A stretch of 64,000 bases of DNA from Bdellovibrionales bacterium (GTDB lineage: Bacteria > Bdellovibrionota > Bdellovibrionia > Bdellovibrionales > UBA1609). Positions 6,170 to 61,323 of the stretch are shown here, one piece after another (position 1 is the stretch's first letter; every line of letters begins with the position of its first letter). The notes beneath the pieces were generated by a model. The model searched no databases, had not been told where the DNA came from, and saw only the letters and a list, made by a program, of their open reading frames with translations. A program made the position numbers and the translations under genes. The stretch spans positions 416,001 to 480,000 of the forward strand of contig OZ241329.1 of the NCBI GenBank assembly GCA_965199825.1, given 5' to 3'.

Positions 6170-6910
6170 GGGGTTTGGCTTTATAAATGAACAGCCTTAT
6201 TCTTAACAAATCTGGATTGAACAGCTTGCGAAAGTTTTGTTCGGTATCATTGAAATGACATTGCCCCGTCGGTTTTAATTTTTTGCGAGTAAAAATTAAT
6301 CACAAGCGGTCTTGTTATTCTTAATTGAACAAAATCCGAACACCTCGGAGTCTTGTTTTTCGGGTGAGATGCGGATGGCGGTTCGGTTTTATAAATTAAA
6401 CCGCTTTGCTCTTAACAAATCTGAATCAATCCGGTTGCGAAAGATCTGTCCGGTATCATTGAAATGACATTGCCCCACCAGTTTTAATTTTCTTGGTCGA
6501 GTACAAAACGAAACGCATGCGGTCTTGTCATTTTTTAATTGAACAAGATTTGAACACCTCGGAGTTTTGTTTTTGCGGTGAGATGCGGATGGCGGTTTGG
6601 TTTTTGGATCAAATAAATCTGATAGGCACCGGATACGAGTAGCTCTATTTGATATAAATAAAATGACATTGCCCCATCAGTTAAAATTTCGAATGGAATA
6701 CAATTCTATTGCAAGCAGTCTTTTGAAATCTAATTGAACAAAGTCCGAACACCTCGGAGTTTTGTTGTGGCTGCAACATTAGATTTTTATATGGGATCGT
6801 GCCACTCTTCATCTTGGTGAGGGTTCAATCATTGCCCAAACTTTGATGAGACTACAGTGAGTAGGATGCGAATACATTTATTTAATGAAATCGAAATGAC
6901 ATTGCCCCGT
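6170..6910 (+). repeat. Degenerate ~200-210 bp tandem units with two conserved motifs
   Basis: (G)AAATGACATTGCCCC at 6252, 6461, 6661, 6893; GAACACCTCGGAGT at 6338, 6552, 6747; units 1 and 2 align along their length. Confidence 0.9.
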
Positions 6911-7039
6911 CGGCAGCGCTTGAATAAAAGTAGCACGATCACTTCTTAAAAAAATAAATTCGTCCCAAAATTTCAATTTTAAAATTAACTTTTTAACCAT
7001 AAATAAATTGTAATTTAATGTATATAAATATAGTTTATA

Positions 7040-7591
7040 GTGATGAAACAGCTTCCTCTTTTTTCACTTTCCAAATCAAAAAGTTACGGCGGCCAAATGA
7101 AAGGTCGGCGAAAAACCGCGCGTCCATTAGATAAAAAGCGCTTGCATCACGTGATTCTAAAATCGCAATATGCTAAGGGTGGCCGGAGCTTTAAAAAATT
7201 TGATATGCAAATCAAATACAAAAATTTGATTTATTCCAAAGCGAAAAAGTATGGAATACGAATCGCGGCTTACAGCAACGTAGGCAATCATTTTCACTTG
7301 CTCATCCGCTTTCAAGATCGCAATCTCATCAAAACTTTTTTTCGAGTTGTCGCCGGAGTGATCGCAAGGCTTGCCGTCGGCGCACAAAAAGGGAAAAGGT
7401 TTGGCAGATTTTGGGACTCGGTCATTTTCTCTCGTATCGTTAGCAAAGGTCGGGATGAAATCCGCATGTTTGATTACCTTGAAGCAAATTTGATTCAGTC
7501 ACACTTTGGGAAAGCGGCGCGCAAACATTTCGAATCGATATGTAAGGAATATTGGAAGGAATTTTTTAGAACTTCACGTGCTCCGGGTTGA
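7040..7591 (+). mobile_element. HUH Y1 transposase, RAYT/IS200-like
   Basis: HHVILKS, NHFHLLI (HUH), RFW, SRIV and catalytic-Tyr region DYLEAN; 183 aa and basic. Confidence 0.8.
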
Positions 7592-7852
7592 GGGAATCAA
7601 ACTTGAACTTACCCAATTAATTTCCAAACGAACGATCTCAGTGCAAACAATCACATAATCTTCGTATTCCTTCGTTCACGATACAAACTAATTTTAATTA
7701 TCCCTGTCTCGAATTGTTGCGGCCAAATGTGGTTCCTTCGTGATTCACACTCCCAAAAAACGCCCGCCATCACTTAGCGATCAAACAAAAAATCCACACA
7801 AAGATTTCAATCTTAAACCAAGACCAACCGCTCAACCAATTCTAACAAGCAG

Positions 7853-7866
7853 AATGACATTGCCCC
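7853..7866 (+). repeat. Downstream copy of the AATGACATTGCCCC motif
   Basis: Exact 14-nt match to the upstream array motif, same orientation. Confidence 0.85.
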
Positions 7867-7886
7867 ATCCAAGCACTCAACCCCCG

Positions 7887-50366: not shown

Positions 50367-52502
50367 TTAGTTCGGCACACATCCTAACACAGCTTCCATT
50401 TCTCCACCCGCCTTTAAGCCCTCATTCAGATCGGTCGAGATGAGGTGATCCCCATTCGATGGAATAAAAAATCGATACAGGGCTGAAGTCTGATTTTTTT
50501 GTCTTTGATAAATCGCACCATAGCTCGATTCGAAGTGTTGTCCTTCACAGTCTGGACTGATCGAAGCAAAGTGAAGTCCACTCGACTCCACAACACATCG
50601 GTTGAGATTCATTGTTAAGGCCTGATTATTTTGACTTACAACTTTGAGGACAGGTGCACCCTTATTTTCAAGGAACCAAGTGGGAAGACTCACTTCGTTG
50701 TTGATCACCGAATACAGATGGAGTCCGTTGGTCGTATTAAAAAATCGATAGATACCTTGAGTGTCGTAGCCGGGGTTTGAAGCAAATTGATTTACAACAC
50801 CGGGTTGGATGAGCGCATGAATTTGTGTTTCAGAACTTAAGGATGCGCTGTCACTCGAAACTGATAGAAAATGAACAATACAATCGCCCGCGTTGACGTT
50901 GATAAATGTGGATTGATAAATTGGACTTTGCAAAACACCTTGGGTTCCTGCTGGATCACGAAATTGCACATTTGCCACTTTGGTCATTTCACTTGCTTGA
51001 GCTGAAAAATCACCAGATGTCCATGGTGTTGGATGAGAACATTTACGATCAATATAAAAATCATGTGTGGTTCCCCAAGCTTGATTTGAAGTTCCTTGAC
51101 CAGGGATGGTTTGATTACTGATTGATCCATAAAGCGCAAGCAAGGTTCCCGAAGTTTCGATTGGAATGGATCGAGCAAAAAGAAAATTGCCAGACTTTTG
51201 TGGCGTTGAAATAAAACCGCATGTGTTGGGTTGCATACCTGTGCAAAATTCATCGCCTGGCGCGACCAAAACAGCTGTGGCTGGTCCATTATTAATCAAA
51301 TCAAGAACCAGGTGACTTTCCATTCGCAGATGTGAGTCGCCCACAAATCCACCATCCATAATGATAAATGCGCAACCGCCCACAGGAAGAGCCGCAGGAA
51401 AAGAGAAATTGATGCTTTGATTTTTTTGATCGTTGTAGAGACCCTTTACAATAAATGTAGCTAAAGTAATTTTGTTGAATTGATCTTCATTAATTCCTAA
51501 TGCATCTTCAATTGCTTGATAATTTCCTCCACCAAAAGACTGGCCGTTAAGAGCACAGGCGGCAGGAGAACTTCCGATTGTTGCAAGTAAATTAAATTCT
51601 GAGGTGCCTTGTTCTCCGTTTACAACTCCAGCATGAAGGCTACCATGGATACCGACCGTCCCTGTGGTACCGGCTGGGAGTGGAAACGAGTAAATATATT
51701 TTTTAAATTGGCCCGCATCGCGATTCACTTGAGCCGAAAGACTGACGCTTGCGGTGGACGGTAAATCTGGAAGAACGCCACCAGCAGCATGAGTCGCCAA
51801 AACTGTTTCGCCCGAATAAAATGTTGAGGATAAAGTTTGCCCCACCATTGCGATCGCTCCCCCACAATACTGATAAAAATCTTGGGCACGAGTGGCACAA
51901 GCATTTTGATCTCCTGAGGCATTATTTAGAATATCAACCACTGTTGTGTTGGCCAATTCGGAATGTGCAGGGCAAGGACCAATCGTAATTTGACAAGAAG
52001 TTGAAGTTCCAAGTGCAACTGTACCTTGATCCGATGAAACAACTAAGTGTGGAGCTGAAGCCTGCAGATTGTATGAAACATTCGTATGCCCACCAGTTGC
52101 AGTCTGAAAATATAATTTTCCATTTTGGGTGAGTGTGATGTTTCCATCTTCACCAAGTGAGGCCACACATCCAGAAGAGCAATCCCGACCCGAAGTATGC
52201 GAAGTCCAAAGAACCGCTGAATCTTTTGTCATCACCAAATTTCCGTCAGTCTGAAGCTTGAGTTGAATTGATCCTTGTTGCAGCCACTGGTTGGCCACAA
52301 TACTTTGTGCCCGTAATTGTGAAACTTGAGGGGCTACCGATGAAGACGGCGAGGCTGAAGGAGATGGTGAGGGTGCGGGGTTTGCGACTGAGCTCGAAGA
52401 GAGCTGGGTCGAAGAGACTAACGAAGAAATTGATTTGAACCCACCGCCTGTGCACGCCACCATCGCGGTTTGTATCAAAATAAGAATTAAATATTTTTTC
52501 AT
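50367..52502 (-). CDS. Lipoprotein with bulb-type lectin domain and C-terminal DUF5648-like repeats
   Basis: Lipobox MVAC, LQTDGNLV...LWTSHT, 'YRFFN...HLYS' repeats. Confidence 0.75.
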   Translation of the reverse strand: MKKYLILILIQTAMVACTGGGFKSISSLVSSTQLSSSSVANPAPSPSPSASPSSSVAPQVSQLRAQSIVANQWLQQGSIQLKLQTDGNLVMTKDSAVLWTSHTSGRDCSSGCVASLGEDGNITLTQNGKLYFQTATGGHTNVSYNLQASAPHLVVSSDQGTVALGTSTSCQITIGPCPAHSELANTTVVDILNNASGDQNACATRAQDFYQYCGGAIAMVGQTLSSTFYSGETVLATHAAGGVLPDLPSTASVSLSAQVNRDAGQFKKYIYSFPLPAGTTGTVGIHGSLHAGVVNGEQGTSEFNLLATIGSSPAACALNGQSFGGGNYQAIEDALGINEDQFNKITLATFIVKGLYNDQKNQSINFSFPAALPVGGCAFIIMDGGFVGDSHLRMESHLVLDLINNGPATAVLVAPGDEFCTGMQPNTCGFISTPQKSGNFLFARSIPIETSGTLLALYGSISNQTIPGQGTSNQAWGTTHDFYIDRKCSHPTPWTSGDFSAQASEMTKVANVQFRDPAGTQGVLQSPIYQSTFINVNAGDCIVHFLSVSSDSASLSSETQIHALIQPGVVNQFASNPGYDTQGIYRFFNTTNGLHLYSVINNEVSLPTWFLENKGAPVLKVVSQNNQALTMNLNRCVVESSGLHFASISPDCEGQHFESSYGAIYQRQKNQTSALYRFFIPSNGDHLISTDLNEGLKAGGEMEAVLGCVPN

Positions 52503-52612
52503 CAGATCCCCCGGCTTTCACAATTAGAAATTGCAACGGGTGGACCTGTTCACTTGTAATTTAAATCAACTCGCCAATTTAAGTTCGACACCTGTTAGGA
52601 TACTCGACAGTG
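52503..52612 (-). promoter_or_regulatory. sigma54-type promoter with candidate upstream activator site
   Basis: Minus strand AGGTCCACCCGTTGCA (GG-N10-GC); 45 bp nearly identical to 54737-54781; plus-strand ATACTCGACAGTG conserved at the same offset. Confidence 0.65.
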
Positions 52613-52636
52613 AGTCTCGTTTTAAGAATCCTATTT

Positions 52637-54736
52637 TCAATTGGGTGCATATCCCATAATGCCTTCCAGATTTTGGCCGGATTTTAATCCCTCATTGATA
52701 TCAGTCGTAATCAAATGGTCTCCAGTCACAGTATCAAAAAAGCGATAAAGAGCACTGGAATTTGATTTTTGCCGTTGAAGAATGGATCCCATCACTGATT
52801 CTTTTTGTTGTCCTTCGCAAGCCGGATCGGTGGTCAGAAGATGCTGTCCATTACCGTTGTTCACACATCGATACAATAACGAGCTCGAAGCTCCAGCCGC
52901 ATTCAAAATATGAAATACCGGTGCGCCATTATTTTCTAAAGACCATGGATTGCTAGAAACTTCGGACGCTAATATTGAAAATAAATGAGTGCCGTCGTTT
53001 GAATTAAAAAATCTAAAAATATCTGTGTTTGTCGAACTTGGTCTTGAAGCAAAATCGGTGACCAAACCGGTTTGAATCAGCGCATGGATTTGGGTTTCGG
53101 TGCTCATCGGCATTGTTGCATTCTGAATCGACAAAACATGGATCAGACAATCGCCCGCATTCACGTCAACAAAGAGCGATTGATAAATCATACTTTGTCT
53201 TACACTTTGATTTCCTGAAGTATCATTCAATTGAAACTTTGCAAGTAAAGTCATCTTCGCGATTTGCGAACTATAGTCTCCATCGCCATAAACACTTTCG
53301 GGCATAGTCGAACAATTGCGATCAAGGTAGTAAGCGTGTGTCCCACCCCAAGGAGCCGAAGGCAATGGATCAGGAAGTGTTCCCTGACTGATCGTTCCAT
53401 AGAGACCCAACATTTTACCTTTGGTTTTAATCTGGACTGAACGAGCAAAAAGAGATTCACCGGATAAACGCGGTGAATTCGCCTGGCCACACGCTGTGCC
53501 GTTTGGAACGCCTGTGCAAAATTCATCGCCCGGTGCAACAAGTTGAGCGGTAGCACGACCATGATTGACCAGATCCACACTCAAATTAGCCGCCAAATTA
53601 AGATGAGAAAATCCGATAAATCCACCATCTAAAATCACAAACATGCACCCACTGACAGGTACTGCTGCAGGCAATGAAAAATTAATCGGAATCGTTCTTT
53701 GATCGTTGTGAACACCTTTTAATATAAAAGTTGAAAGAACCGTGTTGTTAAATGAATCAATATCCAAACCAAAATCACTCAAAATCAAATCGTAGCTGCC
53801 TGTGTAGGAACGCCCATTGAGAGGGCAAGCTTTAGGTGAAGCGCCTACAGTCACAAGTAAATCATAAGCAACATCGCCTTGCTGACCATCGACAACCCCT
53901 GCCGAAATATCACCATGAAATCCGACAACACCGACCGCACTCGCAGGTAATGGAAATGAAGACATGTACATTGTAAAACCATATTTATCGGTTGTGGCAT
54001 GAGCCGAAATATCAAAATTCAAATCGGGTTTTAAATCTTCAAGAGCTCCACCAACCAAGACGGCTGGAGCTGCAACTTCGCCAGTATAAAATGTTGAGCT
54101 GAAAGTTTGCCCAGGCATTTGTTCAGCACCGCCACACATATCATAAAAATTTTGGGTACGAGTGGCACAGTCTTGAGCGGTCAGAGCGCCATCAATTAAA
54201 GATGTTTGTGCAAGTTCTGAATGAGCGGGACATGTTCCAATCGAAATTTGACATGAAGTTGCATTGCCCACACTGACTTGGCCTTTATCATTTGATATCA
54301 AAAAGTGTGGGGCTTGAGCCTGCAAACTAAAAGAAGCGTTCGAATTCCCACCCGTAGAAGTTTGAAAATACAATTTTCCATTTTGTGAAAGAGTGATGTT
54401 GCCGTCATCATTTAAACTTGCAACGCAACCACTGGAACAATCGCGTCCCGCAGTGTGAGAGCTCCATAACACTCCACCATCTTTGGACATCACCAAATTT
54501 CCGTCTGTTTGCAGCTTGAGTTGAATTGATCCTTGCTGAAGCCACTGATTAGCCACAATACTTTGTGCCCCCAATCGTGAAGCTTGGGTTGCTACCGATG
54601 GAGAGGGCAAAGGCTCTGGGGTGGAGCTTGAAGAAAGCTGAGACGAAGACACCAAGGATGAGAGAGATTTAAACCCGCCGCTTGTGCAGGCAACTAAAGA
54701 TGACTGTATCAAAATGAGAATTAAATATTTTTTCAT
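52637..54736 (-). CDS. Paralogous bulb-type lectin lipoprotein
   Basis: Same architecture and near-identical N-terminus to 50367..52502. Confidence 0.75.
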   Translation of the reverse strand: MKKYLILILIQSSLVACTSGGFKSLSSLVSSSQLSSSSTPEPLPSPSVATQASRLGAQSIVANQWLQQGSIQLKLQTDGNLVMSKDGGVLWSSHTAGRDCSSGCVASLNDDGNITLSQNGKLYFQTSTGGNSNASFSLQAQAPHFLISNDKGQVSVGNATSCQISIGTCPAHSELAQTSLIDGALTAQDCATRTQNFYDMCGGAEQMPGQTFSSTFYTGEVAAPAVLVGGALEDLKPDLNFDISAHATTDKYGFTMYMSSFPLPASAVGVVGFHGDISAGVVDGQQGDVAYDLLVTVGASPKACPLNGRSYTGSYDLILSDFGLDIDSFNNTVLSTFILKGVHNDQRTIPINFSLPAAVPVSGCMFVILDGGFIGFSHLNLAANLSVDLVNHGRATAQLVAPGDEFCTGVPNGTACGQANSPRLSGESLFARSVQIKTKGKMLGLYGTISQGTLPDPLPSAPWGGTHAYYLDRNCSTMPESVYGDGDYSSQIAKMTLLAKFQLNDTSGNQSVRQSMIYQSLFVDVNAGDCLIHVLSIQNATMPMSTETQIHALIQTGLVTDFASRPSSTNTDIFRFFNSNDGTHLFSILASEVSSNPWSLENNGAPVFHILNAAGASSSLLYRCVNNGNGQHLLTTDPACEGQQKESVMGSILQRQKSNSSALYRFFDTVTGDHLITTDINEGLKSGQNLEGIMGYAPN

Positions 54737-57631: not shown

Positions 57632-58378
57632 CTAGGGTTGCTTACGCAGCTTGACAACTACTTTCTTTGCGTAGCGAGCGTCGATGACGCGACCCTTAAT
57701 GCGCTGCCCTTGCAGATATGCGAGCACTTGCTCCACATGATTTACACTTTCCGAAAGCGTGTCTTCAGAAACTTTCACAGTCAGACCATTGCCGATCAGA
57801 ATAAATGAAAATCCAGATTTATCAAAATGAACTTCTGAAACAGAAGCCTTCGAAAAATTTCCTTTTTCGGGAAGTTGCTCAATCAACTTCACCGCTTTTT
57901 CGCGCAAACTTTGATTGGTAAAAAATTGCGGCCCTCTGAGCGTTGGCCGATCCGGAGCTTGTGTCGGATGAAACGGCGGAAGAAGTGCGCCGTCATTAGT
58001 CACCGGATGCAGATCGCCATCTTGATCCAGCAAATTAAGGTTGCTCAGCTTTGGCCGAATGACAACCGTCACGCGATTAGGAAATGTGCGTAACACTTGG
58101 GTTGTTTGAATGCGCGGATCGAGCTCGATGGTCTTTAACACATCAGGCAAATTCAAATTCCAAACCCAAATATTTTCATAAGGCTTAAGTTGAACTCTCA
58201 TTGCATCATAGATTTTGTCGAAGGCGGCTTGTTCGTCTTTTGCGGTTTCATCAAGAACAAGCTCCACCGGCTTTGCCTTTAAAAATCCTTGGCTAAAAAT
58301 ATAATAAAAGATTGTGGCTGTACCTAGTATGGCCGCAAGACCTAGAAAAAACGAAAGCGAGATTTTAAATTTCCGCAT
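57632..58378 (-). CDS. ftsQ: Cell division protein FtsQ
   Basis: TM, POTRA 'PRI....V.RTFPNRVTV.I', C-terminal IDARY; synteny. Confidence 0.85.
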   Translation of the reverse strand: MRKFKISLSFFLGLAAILGTATIFYYIFSQGFLKAKPVELVLDETAKDEQAAFDKIYDAMRVQLKPYENIWVWNLNLPDVLKTIELDPRIQTTQVLRTFPNRVTVVIRPKLSNLNLLDQDGDLHPVTNDGALLPPFHPTQAPDRPTLRGPQFFTNQSLREKAVKLIEQLPEKGNFSKASVSEVHFDKSGFSFILIGNGLTVKVSEDTLSESVNHVEQVLAYLQGQRIKGRVIDARYAKKVVVKLRKQP

Positions 58379-58469
58379 GAGTTGAACTGTAGCTTAAGGA
58401 TTGGTGGCTTGTCTAATTTTTGGCGAGCGATGGTAGGGGTTTGGTTTAGGTTGGGTGGGCCTGCGGTTG

Positions 58470-59380
58470 ATTTTTGGCTTGGGGGGTTTTGTCGTGCCCG
58501 CTAAGTTTGGGTTTTGTGTTTAGGATTTTGTTGTGCCCGCTGGTTTGGGTTTTGTGTTTAGGATTTTGTCGTGCCCACAGAGTTTTGGAATTTTGGCTTG
58601 AGGGATTTTGTCGTGCCCGCTGGTTTGGGTTTTGTGTTTAGGATTTTGTCGTGCCCACACAGTTTTGGAATTTTGGCTTGAGGGATTTTGTCGTGCCCGC
58701 TGAGTTTGGGTTTTGTCTTGAGTATTTTGTCGTGCCCGCTAAGTTTGAAGGGAATTATTTGTCGTGCCCACAGAGTTTTGGAATTTTGGCTTGAGGGATT
58801 TTGTCGTGCCCGCTAAGTTTGAAGGGAATTATTTGTCGTGCCCGCTGAAGTTGAGGTTTTGTGTTGAGGATTTTGTCGTGCCCGCTAAGTTTGAAGAGAA
58901 TTATTTGTCGTGCCCGCTGAAGTTGAGGGGATCGACTTTGTGTTGCACGTGAGTTTTGTAGCTTGAAGGAATTTGTCGTGCCCGCCAGTCTAGAAAAATT
59001 TATGAACACGAAAAACTATATGCGATTTTTTATAAGTTCAAAAACTGATGTCGTGGCTGCGAGTTTTGAAATTGGCTTCAGAGATTTTGTCGTGCCCATG
59101 AGTGTGAAGGAATTGATTTTGTCGTGCCCCCTGAGGTGAGGGAACTGATCTTGTCGGGCCCGCTGTATTGTAAGGAAATTAAATTCTCGTGCCTGCGATT
59201 TTTGGAATTGTGGCTTGCAAAATTTTATCGTGCCCGCTGAGTTGGGAGAATTGATCCTATCGTGCCCGCGAGATTGGTATCCGCACTTTGAACAACTTCG
59301 TCGTGCCCGCTGAGTCTAGGTTAATTTTAAATTTCGATAACGTCGGCGCGATTTTCGAAAAATAAAATTCGTCGTGCCCA
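58470..59380 (+). repeat. Array of ~22 short direct repeats (core TTTGTCGTGCCCGC) with G/T-rich spacers
   Basis: Core starts at 58491, 58530, 58568, 58610, 58648, 58690, 58729, 58761, 58803, 58835, 58875, 58907, 58975, 59050, 59089, 59121, 59153, 59186, 59227, 59259, 59300, 59371 (some degenerate). Confidence 0.95.
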
Positions 59381-59592
59381 CAAAAAGTTATTGACGAGTT
59401 TTTTACCTCATAACATTCGCCTCCATTCGCGTTTCGTCACATAGCGATTGTTTTTCAAAGCAACGCCTCTCCCAAGCGCTTTCAAAACAAAATCTCCAAT
59501 GAAAATCGGCACGTCTGCCGACATTAGGCACTCTCTCAAAAACCGATTTTAAAAAACCCATGATACACTCTACTTATAAACAGGAGATATTT

Positions 59593-60411
59593 ATGGAGCA
59601 TTCAAAAATTCATTTGGCTGCGGTTGAGGCAGCCGACACTCATCGTAAATCTGAAATGGAGTTGCTCAATGCTTTGGAGCTCGTTTGGAAAAACAAAACT
59701 TTTGTGAAATATGGCTGTCGTTCATTGTTTGAATATTCAACCAAGCACCTCAAATTATCCGAAGAGATGGCGAGCATCGTAAATAAAATTGCAAAAAAAT
59801 TTACCGAAATTCCTGAACTCAAACTTCAAATGGAAACGGGCGATCTTTCGCTTTCAAAAGTGAATCGCATCACCGCAGTTGTAAACAAAGAAAATCTCAA
59901 TCACTGGGTCAATGTGGCCAAAGGAACCAAACGCAATCTCGAAAAAGAAATCGCAAAAGCTCAACCCGAAAAGGCTATACCCGAGCGGGCACGACATCAA
60001 AAAGCTGGAGATACACTACGAGTCGCAATATCTTACTCAATGACCCAAGAGGAGTTCGCACTTTTTGAACGAACCCAAGATCTCTTAAGTCAAAAATTGA
60101 AACGGCCCGCAACCCTTGGTGAAGTTCATCTTGCCGCAATTCAAGAGCTGAGCGCGAAATTGGATCCGCTCAAAAAACCTTTACGTTCAAAACAAGGCGG
60201 TACAACAAAATTGACCATCACTTTAAAACGTCAGGTTCATCACAATTATAATAGCCAATGCACTCATGTTGATGAAAATGGCGAGCGTTGTTCAGCCCGA
60301 CGCCATTTAGACATTCATCATATCATTCCGAAATCGAGAGGTGGAACGGACCTCGAAGACAATTTAACCATTTTATGTTCGGGTCATCATCGTGCCCATC
60401 ATCGAAAATAA
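59593..60411 (+). CDS. HNH endonuclease with DUF222-like helical N-terminus
   Basis: SD AGGAG at 59582, ATG 59593; 'GCRSLFEY...LKLSE', 'GDLSLS'; C-terminal CTH...C...LDIHHIIP.SRGG...NLTILCSGHH. Confidence 0.85.
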   Translation: MEHSKIHLAAVEAADTHRKSEMELLNALELVWKNKTFVKYGCRSLFEYSTKHLKLSEEMASIVNKIAKKFTEIPELKLQMETGDLSLSKVNRITAVVNKENLNHWVNVAKGTKRNLEKEIAKAQPEKAIPERARHQKAGDTLRVAISYSMTQEEFALFERTQDLLSQKLKRPATLGEVHLAAIQELSAKLDPLKKPLRSKQGGTTKLTITLKRQVHHNYNSQCTHVDENGERCSARRHLDIHHIIPKSRGGTDLEDNLTILCSGHHRAHHRK

Positions 60412-60414
60412 ATT

Positions 60415-61323
60415 TTAGCGAACACCTGCGTAATCCAAAGTTGCTCGCTGAACCAAAATATCTACGACTTGAGCAAACTCAATTCCATCTTTGGCCGCCG
60501 ACTTCGGCAGTAAAGATGTCTTGGTGCAACCTGGGAGGGTGTTGATTTCAAGAACATACAATTGGTGATCGGGTGTCACACGAAAATCTACACGCGAGTA
60601 CACGCGGCATTGAGTCACTTGATGCACCTTTAAAGAAATTTTCCTGATCTTTTCGACCACATCATCGGGCAATCGGGGCGGTAAAATGTATTCGGTTTTG
60701 CCGGCGGTGTATTTTCGTTGGTAGTCGTAAAATCCTTCTTGAGGCACGATCTCGATTGGAGTCAATACTCGATCATCCAAGATGGGCACCGTGATTTCCA
60801 TGCCTGGAATAAATTCTTCTACCAAAATTTCTTTGTCGTATTTTAGTGCGTCCACAATGCCGCGATTAAATTCATCGAGATTGTGCGCAACCGAGATGCC
60901 GACGGTGGATCCATCTCGCGAGGGTTTGATCACCACCGGAAATTTTAATTTTTTCAAAACTGGCGCGGTTTCATTTTTAAAAAATTCGAATTCAGGACTT
61001 AAAATATTGTGAAATGATAAAATTTGTTTAGTGAAATATTTGTTCATACAAAGGGCCGAGGCCATGACGCCCGAGCCCGTGTAGGGAATTTTCATATATT
61101 CACACAAGCCTTGCACCGTACCGTCTTCGGCATACTTGCCGTGAAGTGCTAAGAGTGCAACATCCGGCTTCACCCCAGCAAGGCGTAAAGGTAAATCAAG
61201 TCCAGCATCGATCACGACATACTCGTGACCAAGAGTTCGTAAGGCCTCTTCAAAAGCCCGACCCGTGTTGAGTGCAACCTCGCGCTCCGAACTCATTCCG
61301 CCCATCACAAGTGCAATTTTCAT
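60415..61323 (-). CDS. ddl: D-alanine--D-alanine ligase
   Basis: MGGMSSEREV, LHGKYAEDG, GSTVG, YDYQRKY, EINTLPG. Confidence 0.96.
   Translation of the reverse strand: MKIALVMGGMSSEREVALNTGRAFEEALRTLGHEYVVIDAGLDLPLRLAGVKPDVALLALHGKYAEDGTVQGLCEYMKIPYTGSGVMASALCMNKYFTKQILSFHNILSPEFEFFKNETAPVLKKLKFPVVIKPSRDGSTVGISVAHNLDEFNRGIVDALKYDKEILVEEFIPGMEITVPILDDRVLTPIEIVPQEGFYDYQRKYTAGKTEYILPPRLPDDVVEKIRKISLKVHQVTQCRVYSRVDFRVTPDHQLYVLEINTLPGCTKTSLLPKSAAKDGIEFAQVVDILVQRATLDYAGVR

Follow-up and report, generated by a model that had tools for sequence, protein, structure and literature searches.

Multi-copy genes annotated as 'hypothetical HNH' are common in the phylum to which the Bdellovibrionales belong, and mycobacteria have a comparable class; the binding target and the multiplication of these HNH genes have no account in the literature that we searched. 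As for the described systems that come closest, homing elements disrupt or lack their own site, CRISPR-Cas systems are defined by a constant repeat with unique spacers, and type III toxin-antitoxin systems by an RNase toxin of the ToxN, CptN or TenpN type with structured (pseudoknot) antitoxin repeats. REP13E12 is counted as a repetitive element (PMC10589994), and a role in DNA repair has been proposed for the mycobacterial 13E12 HNH genes (PMC4181829). The omega2 repressor binds repeats upstream of its own gene (PMC2441792), and TIGR-Tas systems combine a Nop domain with an array processed into 36-nt units (PMC12045711). Here we describe a locus within a window of 64,000 nucleotides (C1:416001-480000; coordinates below are window positions) from the 2.84-Mb genome of a Bdellovibrionales bacterium (labelled G000, chromosome C1), in which an array of short cores precedes an HNH nuclease gene between the host genes ddl and ftsQ. 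The original prediction had taken it for an undescribed module, a repeat-spacer array coupled to a lone DUF222-like HNH nuclease, with the array giving either small RNAs (guide or antitoxin) or DNA binding sites. Judged from its sequence, the locus is a real feature, a variant of selfish HNH elements with a testable candidate cognate site. With a probability of roughly 0.6, we read it as a selfish nuclease element that is bounded by its own binding site and has been amplified in this genome into minisatellites; of the two functions predicted for the array, DNA binding appears to fit the evidence best. The parts on which this reading depends are the following.

58487 to 59381, plus strand: array of 22 cores with the consensus RTCGTGCCCRC (core count, tandem-repeat analysis, short reads)
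59371 to 59381, plus strand: proximal core, putative left end of the copied unit (paralogue positions, start of duplicate homology)
59391 to 59565, plus strand: leader of 175 nt with a TTGAC box, ending in an extended -10 box (genome-wide pattern search)
59593 to 60411, plus strand: HNH gene, intact open reading frame (ORF) of 272 residues (ORF, Pfam, structural model)
59638 to 59967, plus strand: predicted ParB/KorB/Noc-like DNA-binding domain, residues 16-125 (fold match, Pfam HTH_ParB)
59984 to 59996, minus strand: gene-internal core, reversed, at codons E-R-A-R (codon conservation 0.90-0.95)
60022 to 60180, plus strand: predicted ribbon-helix-helix-like dimerisation region, residues 144-196 (fold match, dimer strand pairing)
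60190 to 60211, minus strand: degenerate core, in the linker that precedes the HNH domain (paralogue comparison)
60199 to 60408, plus strand: HNH nuclease domain, catalytic and zinc residues intact (PF01844, E 5e-8)
60389 to 60398, plus strand: 3' core in the last codons H-R-A-H, putative right-hand boundary of the copied unit (codons conserved at 1.0 and 0.96; duplicate homology stops at +804 to +812)

The repeat array is real. Its 22 cores span 58492-59379, with the octamer exact in 18, one mismatch in 3 and two mismatches in 1, and the 11-mer RTCGTGCCCRC occurs 17 times in the window (16 copies within the array and one, reversed, within the HNH gene) against 0.09 expected from 100 shuffles. 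The predicted period of 32-42 bp held for 18 of the 21 core spacings, the remaining three being 68, 71 and 75 bp. The distal half of the array is a recent tandem duplication with higher-order units of 72 and 80 bp, and the proximal half is diverged. Since the spacers are tandem duplicates, the array is a minisatellite with no repeat-spacer memory; among the first 11 spacers, eight are matched by a twin with at least 96% identity, and the spacers of the original prediction are not unique. An assembly artefact was ruled out as the origin of the array by short-read contigs of run X1 and by the divergent strain X3 from a separate study. Among the matches listed, the X1 contigs cover most of the array with zero differing letters, no individual contig bridging all of it. 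In X3 the HNH gene lies beside ddl and the array start beside ftsQ, and 15 of the 18 differences in the gene are synonymous.

Far from being lone, the HNH gene belongs to a family with 27 near-full paralogues and one fragment in this genome, 24 of the 27 with an open frame of at least 268 codons. The predicted coupling between array and gene was borne out across the family, as a core lies upstream of 27/27 paralogues and two or more cores upstream of 25/27, compared with 13.6% and 0.4% of 500 control genes. Of these upstream cores 173 point the same way as the gene and 3 the opposite way; the proximal core is found at -220 to -266 in 22 of the 27 paralogues. Likewise 28/28 HNH ORFs have the core, against at most two members in any other gene family listed. 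By copy number the core is specific to this lineage, its 12-mer occurring 234 times here and at most four times in each of 300 phylum genomes. The tie to HNH genes is not exclusive, as there are also ten gene-free intergenic core arrays, most with units of 16-20 bp, and the core is 3-fold enriched in ordinary genes. We rejected the idea that the gene-free arrays are decayed HNH loci, nhmmer having found no HNH remnant in any of the ten, and identical 18-19 bp units are common to some gene-linked and gene-free arrays. Altogether the core was found in 14 of the 21 chromosomal tandem-repeat loci, including every locus scoring above 250, with unit lengths that range from 16 to 114 bp between loci (16-25 bp in arrays other than the present one). 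Neighbouring genes differ between paralogue loci, and a quick tree shows paralogues to be monophyletic within each genome.

The cores inside the gene point to a site that is maintained for its DNA sequence. Across the paralogues they are located at +394 (reversed), at +584 or +605 (either orientation) and at about +790 (forward); many paralogues have a full core at the linker site, in either orientation, and relatives have their own palindrome there. Codon use was compared among 25 paralogues, the fragment and two damaged copies being left aside. Among 79 conserved codons of 4- or 6-fold degeneracy, the highest five in fixation all lie in internal cores (0.90-1.0 against a median of 0.5), which on the sequence evidence means constraint at the DNA level or repeated homogenisation. 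Cores also mark where homology between recent copies ends. In five duplicate pairs (88-96% identical) homology extends only from -222..-247 to +804..+852, about 1.03 kb, starting near the proximal core and stopping just past the 3' core; in two further pairs it reaches the next core upstream. The shared stretch does not include the arrays, which differ even between 96%-identical copies. Similar boundaries were seen in other genomes: in relative G113 homology runs site to site, from -99 to 875 with sites at -99 and 858, and in relative G226 it stops at the site on the 3' end, downstream of which sites repeat every 107 bp.

The protein of this gene would probably recognise such a site. The ORF is intact, as originally proposed, with its active-site residues kept, and nine of the ten positions checked are invariant in 25/25 paralogues. 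The predicted structure has a mean predicted local distance difference test (pLDDT) score of 92, and its fold matches fall into three parts: ParB, KorB and Spo0J for residues 16-125, ribbon-helix-helix proteins for 144-196 (TraM, NikR, MazE6 and PutA, Z 4.2-5.2) and HNH for 203-272, the last resembling the HNH domain of IscB. When the N-terminal part was folded alone, ParB, KorB and Spo0J made up four of the top five matches (VIA Z 5.7-6.9, root-mean-square deviation 3.5-5.2 Å over 98-103 residues). Pfam HTH_ParB matches 13 of 80 family members, with a best E of 4e-6, and a PDB sequence search with the N-terminal profile returned mostly designed helical proteins. Modelling supports a homodimer, with a score of 0.77 against 0.01 for the best control, contacts that agree to at least 95% between runs and pLDDT of at least 81; 20 of 30 solved homodimers attained the score mark applied, as did 1 of 23 monomers. 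The paralogues are 48-97% identical, and 15 residues are invariant in 25/25 of them and rare elsewhere. Six of these 15 lie within the 18 residues of the predicted recognition helix (residues 53-70) and none in the ribbon-helix-helix. In a manual alignment with ParB, this helix would match the recognition helix of ParB with R173-A184. The specificity residues of ParB are described in PMC7383237. The gene is under strong purifying selection, the ratio of non-synonymous to synonymous substitution rates (dN/dS) being 0.07-0.18 in six pairs, and its nearest named homologues belong to Pseudobdellovibrionaceae.

The family is patchily distributed in the phylum (119 of 251 genomes), and its relatives carry sites of their own. 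The linker, with 46 sites in 27.6 kb, is about 11-fold richer in palindromes of 16-17 bp than the gene body, with 14 in 93.8 kb, and 45 of 163 relative loci have a perfect linker palindrome. In the 76 loci outside this genome for which leader and flank were available, an upstream copy of a piece of the locus's own gene (score at least 14), usually the linker palindrome, was found in 19, against 0 of 380 cross-genome controls. These palindromes resemble parS and the Noc-binding site (NBS) in the comparison with PMC7383237. They vary by clade, even between clades within one genome, and the sequences establish lineage-specific sites in the relatives. In relative G256 one arm pattern occurs 38 times versus 2 for the control; a hand count gave 35 with a central CG, namely 20 perfect palindromes and 15 mixed half-sites, where free assortment would yield about nine perfect palindromes, although these copies are related to one another. 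In a quick tree of 113 rows, including 25 site-less relatives picked at random, the 25 paralogues form one clade beside G010 and G226, whose palindrome half-sites finish in TGCCC, like the core. The original prediction named homologues without upstream arrays, and cores scattered away from HNH genes, as evidence against itself, and both were found in part: only 14 of 149 homologues from other genomes have upstream tandem arrays, mostly of unrelated units, and the core forms gene-free arrays and is enriched in ordinary genes. It is the single site that is conserved and not the array; on present sequences the single site is general and its amplification special to this lineage.

Other searches touched the same family. 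A metagenome scan returned 37 loci with the match confined to the HNH tip, and no phage homologue of the HNH family was found in 50,697 records. A triple-core pattern occurs in at least 115 stretches of genome contigs, mostly from distant taxa among the 80 listed and with no family gene among the matches listed. At one relative locus, L130 (G123:C17:5600-9500), an identical stretch of 147 nt lies both upstream and in the gene linker; it is a miniature inverted-repeat element inside the palindrome, and similar spacing is seen at about eight G123 sites. In genome G015, loci L057, L059 and L067 have an inverted part of the HNH-domain gene, starting at the internal site, just upstream of the leader.

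We propose the following sequence of events. The core would be a double-stranded DNA site recognised by the protein of the neighbouring gene, a homodimer whose ParB/Noc-type recognition domain is followed by a ribbon-helix-helix and by an HNH nuclease. Together with its leader and the site, the gene would make up a selfish element of about 1.03 kb, from core to core, copied to 27 intergenic places on the chromosome, here the ddl-ftsQ junction. The dimer would bind cores and the HNH domain would nick or cut nearby; host repair would take cores as junctions and so copy the element to other core sites. Tandem duplication of short units with a core, by the same repair, would account for both kinds of array, upstream and gene-free. 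In vitro, a nickase together with a polymerase produces repeats of the nickase site (PMC10520511). The gene is probably repressed through its own core sites, which is compatible with the above and has a precedent in omega2. The parts of this proposal are not equally strong: we consider it likely that the HNH protein binds the core, the chance that the cores are true mobile ends slightly better than even, and nuclease-driven amplification of the arrays somewhat short of even.

The surroundings of the element bear on its arrival, and comprise the following features.

57632 to 58378, minus strand: ftsQ, host gene of the dcw cluster, left flank (Pfam FtsQ_DivIB_C and POTRA_1)
58423 to 58435, plus strand: one-mismatch copy of a second motif, the 13-mer M2 (GYGAACGAWGGTA), 55 nt before the first core (motif search)
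59505 to 59522, minus strand: hairpin, terminator-like on the minus (dcw) strand and private to this copy (folding)
59559 to 59587, plus strand: extended -10 box and ribosome-binding site (conserved in paralogue leaders)
60415 to 61323, minus strand: ddl, host gene of the dcw cluster, right flank (Pfam Dala_Dala_lig)

The insert measures 2,036 bp and lies antisense between ddl and ftsQ. These two genes are contiguous (gap of -43 to +95) in 20 of 29 family relatives, that is, in all 20 that show both, the other nine having ddl outside the 1.5-kb flank fetched. No family gene was found at this position in any of the 29 family relatives examined, so by this comparison the insertion into the ddl-ftsQ junction is specific to the lineage. 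The leader has T-tracts in its left half and A-tracts, mirror-placed, in its right half, and finishes with the extended -10 box (59561-59569). On the chromosome 24 of 28 matches to the leader pattern are at HNH genes, and of the 181 family loci 100 contain it, 24 of these from this genome, versus 0.06% of shuffles. Its length is mostly 172-175 or 191 nt in the family, with an internal identity of only about 35%, and this fixed length together with the mirror tracts suggests DNA wrapped on a symmetric complex. Both signals first noted in the leader are present, the hairpin and the extended -10 box, though of 25 paralogue leaders only one has the arms of the hairpin. On the minus strand a terminator-like hairpin (59505-59522) follows ddl and a weak promoter-like site (58386-58415) precedes ftsQ. 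These may be how the dcw cluster tolerates the insertion; promoter counts are not above chance. Elsewhere in the window, two tandem paralogous genes of about 700 residues with lipoprotein-like starts adjoin ftsZ (50367-54736).

Several observations weigh against the selfish element as we describe it. The perfect linker palindrome is absent from 118 of the 163 relative loci, and in the genome studied here the core is not palindromic and the full palindrome is absent. The expected covariation of site and clade was seen in the palindromes themselves, which differ by clade, and between site and protein it is weak: over 63 loci, site similarity correlates weakly with identity of the helix (rho 0.17, against 0.05 for the HNH domain; the pairs are not independent), and near-identical helices pair with different palindrome centres. 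The tree that joins the paralogues to G010 and G226 has support of 80 and 91 and long branches at the relevant joins. Neither an empty site nor a circle junction was seen in close strains. Core spacings show no significant helical phasing (R 0.16, p about 0.2), and by eye the array ends keep no fixed register with the core, hence no fixed nick register. In many other relative pairs homology stops elsewhere or there is no called site, and homology ends fall at the functional ends as well, so that gene conversion among old paralogues would look identical. Regarding the protein, the N-terminal Z below 7 falls in the range that the tool treats as possibly non-specific, and Foldseek on this part gave TM scores of 0.53-0.61 with E above 0.7, not significant. 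Residues 52-59 and 86-89, which belong to the supposed reading surface, are in the interface of the dimer model, and this interface may reflect likeness to solved ribbon-helix-helix dimers.

The alternative that survives best is a domesticated, self-repressing nuclease, with the cores as operators only, old paralogues homogenised by gene conversion and arrays arising by neutral slippage. It agrees with the low dN/dS (0.07-0.18), with a locus common to the diverged strain X3 and with a leader length that is fixed across the phylum, and it has precedents in the repeat operators of omega2 (PMC2441792) and in the DNA repair proposal for 13E12 (PMC4181829). However, it does not lead one to expect a lineage-specific insertion of 2,036 bp in the dcw cluster, paralogues that are monophyletic per genome in a patchy family (119/251 genomes), or ten gene-free arrays without HNH remnant that share identical units with gene-linked ones, and we regard it as unlikely.

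Still less likely is that the core belongs to another factor and that the HNH genes merely target or accumulate it. Such a factor could be a host DNA-binding or repair protein with a motif of its own, for which HIP1 and uptake sequences offer the analogy, or the core could be a REP-like repeat moved by Y1 transposases. A host factor is possible because the core and other motifs are enriched in ordinary genes, and this enrichment also weighs against the selfish element: the core occurs 78 times there against 25 expected, and M2 far more strongly, 52 times in coding DNA versus 1.1 after synonymous shuffling. M2 has 85 exact copies in this genome and at most five in each of 30 relatives. It adjoins several core arrays on its GGTA side, and a core lies no more than 30 nt away, on one side, from 6 of the 85 exact sites, versus 0.4% at random. 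No cognate protein of M2 was found. There is no replichore bias, one orientation accounting for 173 of 328 M2 sites, 31 of 67 single cores and 16 of 28 genes. Other over-represented 9-mers in the genes of chromosome C1 are TGCGGTGAT (120 versus 23), CTTCGATCA and CGGTCAAAG, which look like uptake-sequence or HIP1-type motifs. As to Y1 transposases, the genome has 17 of their genes, and Y1-type modules are mixed into some arrays. One Y1/RAYT-like gene is in the window at 7043-7591 (plus strand, within 6250-7870), with tandem units of about 200 bp upstream. These units carry a motif of their own, AATGACATTGCCCC, in four copies upstream and one downstream of the gene, and most of the 17 genes have AATGACATTGCCCC upstream. 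We rejected Y1/RAYT as the cognate enzyme of the core, since Y1 genes carry their own motif and a core array lies within 1.5 kb of only 1 of the 17, with a single core at one more. Against another factor in general stand the core of 28/28 HNH ORFs versus at most two members of other families listed, the lineage-specific invariants in the HNH protein's own predicted recognition helix, and the separate sites carried by separate clades within one genome.

The array and its spacers gave no sign of RNA or memory functions. Four array units folded on the plus strand and two on the minus strand have no unusual structure (z -0.13 to +1.86), nor do the leaders (mean z about -0.1, n=25). Rfam returned only one chance match on the locus (E 0.54) and no CRISPR repeat family. 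Structured antitoxin repeats gave neither an Rfam match nor a folding signal with a folding tool that omits pseudoknots. Spacers had four matches to phage, none significant (best E-value 3), and inner spacers only short 3-mismatch matches elsewhere in the genome; we rejected foreign DNA as their origin. An RNA-based system, in which small RNAs from the array would serve the nuclease as guides, neutralise it or pair antisense with its mRNA via the reversed internal core, is thus very unlikely, and with it the predicted guide or antitoxin, because the shared orientation of upstream cores and gene (173 to 3), the 13-nt pairing that a plus-strand array transcript would make with the mRNA at 59984-59996 and the IscB-like HNH domain (Z 6.9 over 57 residues) are set against the missing structure and Rfam family, duplicated spacers, units of 16 to 114 bp, internal cores in both orientations, arrays that vary even where copies are 96% identical and that few relatives have (14/149), and an IscB model score of 31.8 bits for a cut-off of 175.

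If the selfish element is real, it would explain the origin of most minisatellites in one genome, and it suggests an undescribed way for selfish genes to move. The family would then serve as a ready-made collection of ParB-type domains with dozens of different partner sites, for the study or engineering of protein-DNA specificity. With a concrete site, with ends for the element and with a candidate for the recognition helix, the locus makes both binding and multiplication directly testable. A wider extension is doubtful: that transposase-free mobile elements of this kind exist phylum-wide, each with a ParB-derived dimeric nuclease and a self-encoded parS-like site at both ends, copied from site to site by nicking and host repair, each clade evolving a new site with its recognition helix and seeding the genome with that site, which would create both host minisatellites and the element's own future landing pads. 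On this wider reading, REP13E12/DUF222-HNH genes could have multiplied in a like manner. Two further observations concern the rest of genome G000. The small contigs C2-C5 have none of the three motifs, C5 has a duplicated tandem-repeat block, and these contigs may be foreign to this chromosome. At C1:2255216-2256142, with five paralogues, there is a six-member family of proteins of about 308 residues that have paired cysteines early in the sequence and look like transposases.

The claim that the module is undescribed agrees with our search, in which we found no account of it, subscription journals being outside the literature covered; the main text of 2026 preprints on non-coding mining has no HNH, DUF222, Bdellovibrio or ParB, and their supplements may bear on novelty. 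Compared with known systems, the likeness to TIGR-Tas (TasH) and to type III toxin-antitoxin loci is confined to layout, in that one nuclease gene follows a tandem array. Unlike TIGR-Tas, the locus has no Nop domain (Pfam to E 1 gives HNH-type families only; the fold matches listed also contain no Nop-domain protein, a result that carries no weight), no fixed 36-nt unit and no structured repeat; unlike type III toxin-antitoxin loci, it has no ToxN, CptN or TenpN-type match in Pfam or PADLOC, which returned matches to the HNH region and one weak JetC. CRISPR-Cas differs from it in that the spacers here are duplicated, and OMEGA IscB in that the full-length model, at 31.8 bits against 175, covers the HNH region only. 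With ParB-parS, Noc-NBS and KorB-operator pairs the family shares a DNA-binding fold predicted to be similar and, in relatives, 16-bp palindromic sites, whereas here the domain is fused to HNH, multi-copy and with no room for a CTPase domain before residue 16. Omega2-parS likewise has a ribbon-helix-helix protein with repeats upstream of its own gene. The DUF222-like label of the original prediction holds only weakly, as 4 of 80 family members give a weak match to this profile, with a best E of 0.005, and the protein itself has no Pfam DUF222 match. Nevertheless, the dispersed multi-copy genes, the helical N-terminal part and the C-terminal HNH domain are shared with REP13E12/DUF222-HNH, and an atlas score of 0.94 connects the family to a neighbour cluster with DUF222 in 12% of its members; the present family is probably a distant relative, with a cognate DNA site, a fixed leader and a site-bounded unit that are not described for REP13E12 in the literature searched. 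REP/REPIN-RAYT systems (PMC3116915) also have a genome-specific short repeat, dispersed and tandem, intergenic and tied to one enzyme family. They differ in that the adjacent enzyme here is an HNH protein and no Y1 transposase, the site is conserved inside coding sequence, and hairpin doublets are absent, with no head-to-head and one tail-to-tail pair of cores within 25 nt on the chromosome. Free-standing HNH homing endonucleases, such as mobE of phage T4 (PMC2790892), are likewise intergenic, site-directed HNH genes that would spread via host repair, and the nuclease active site here is intact. In contrast to them, the present gene has dozens of non-allelic copies on one chromosome and keeps its putative site both within itself and around it. 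In its mode of action the locus would most resemble a free-standing homing nuclease to which a self-propagating site of the REP kind has been added.

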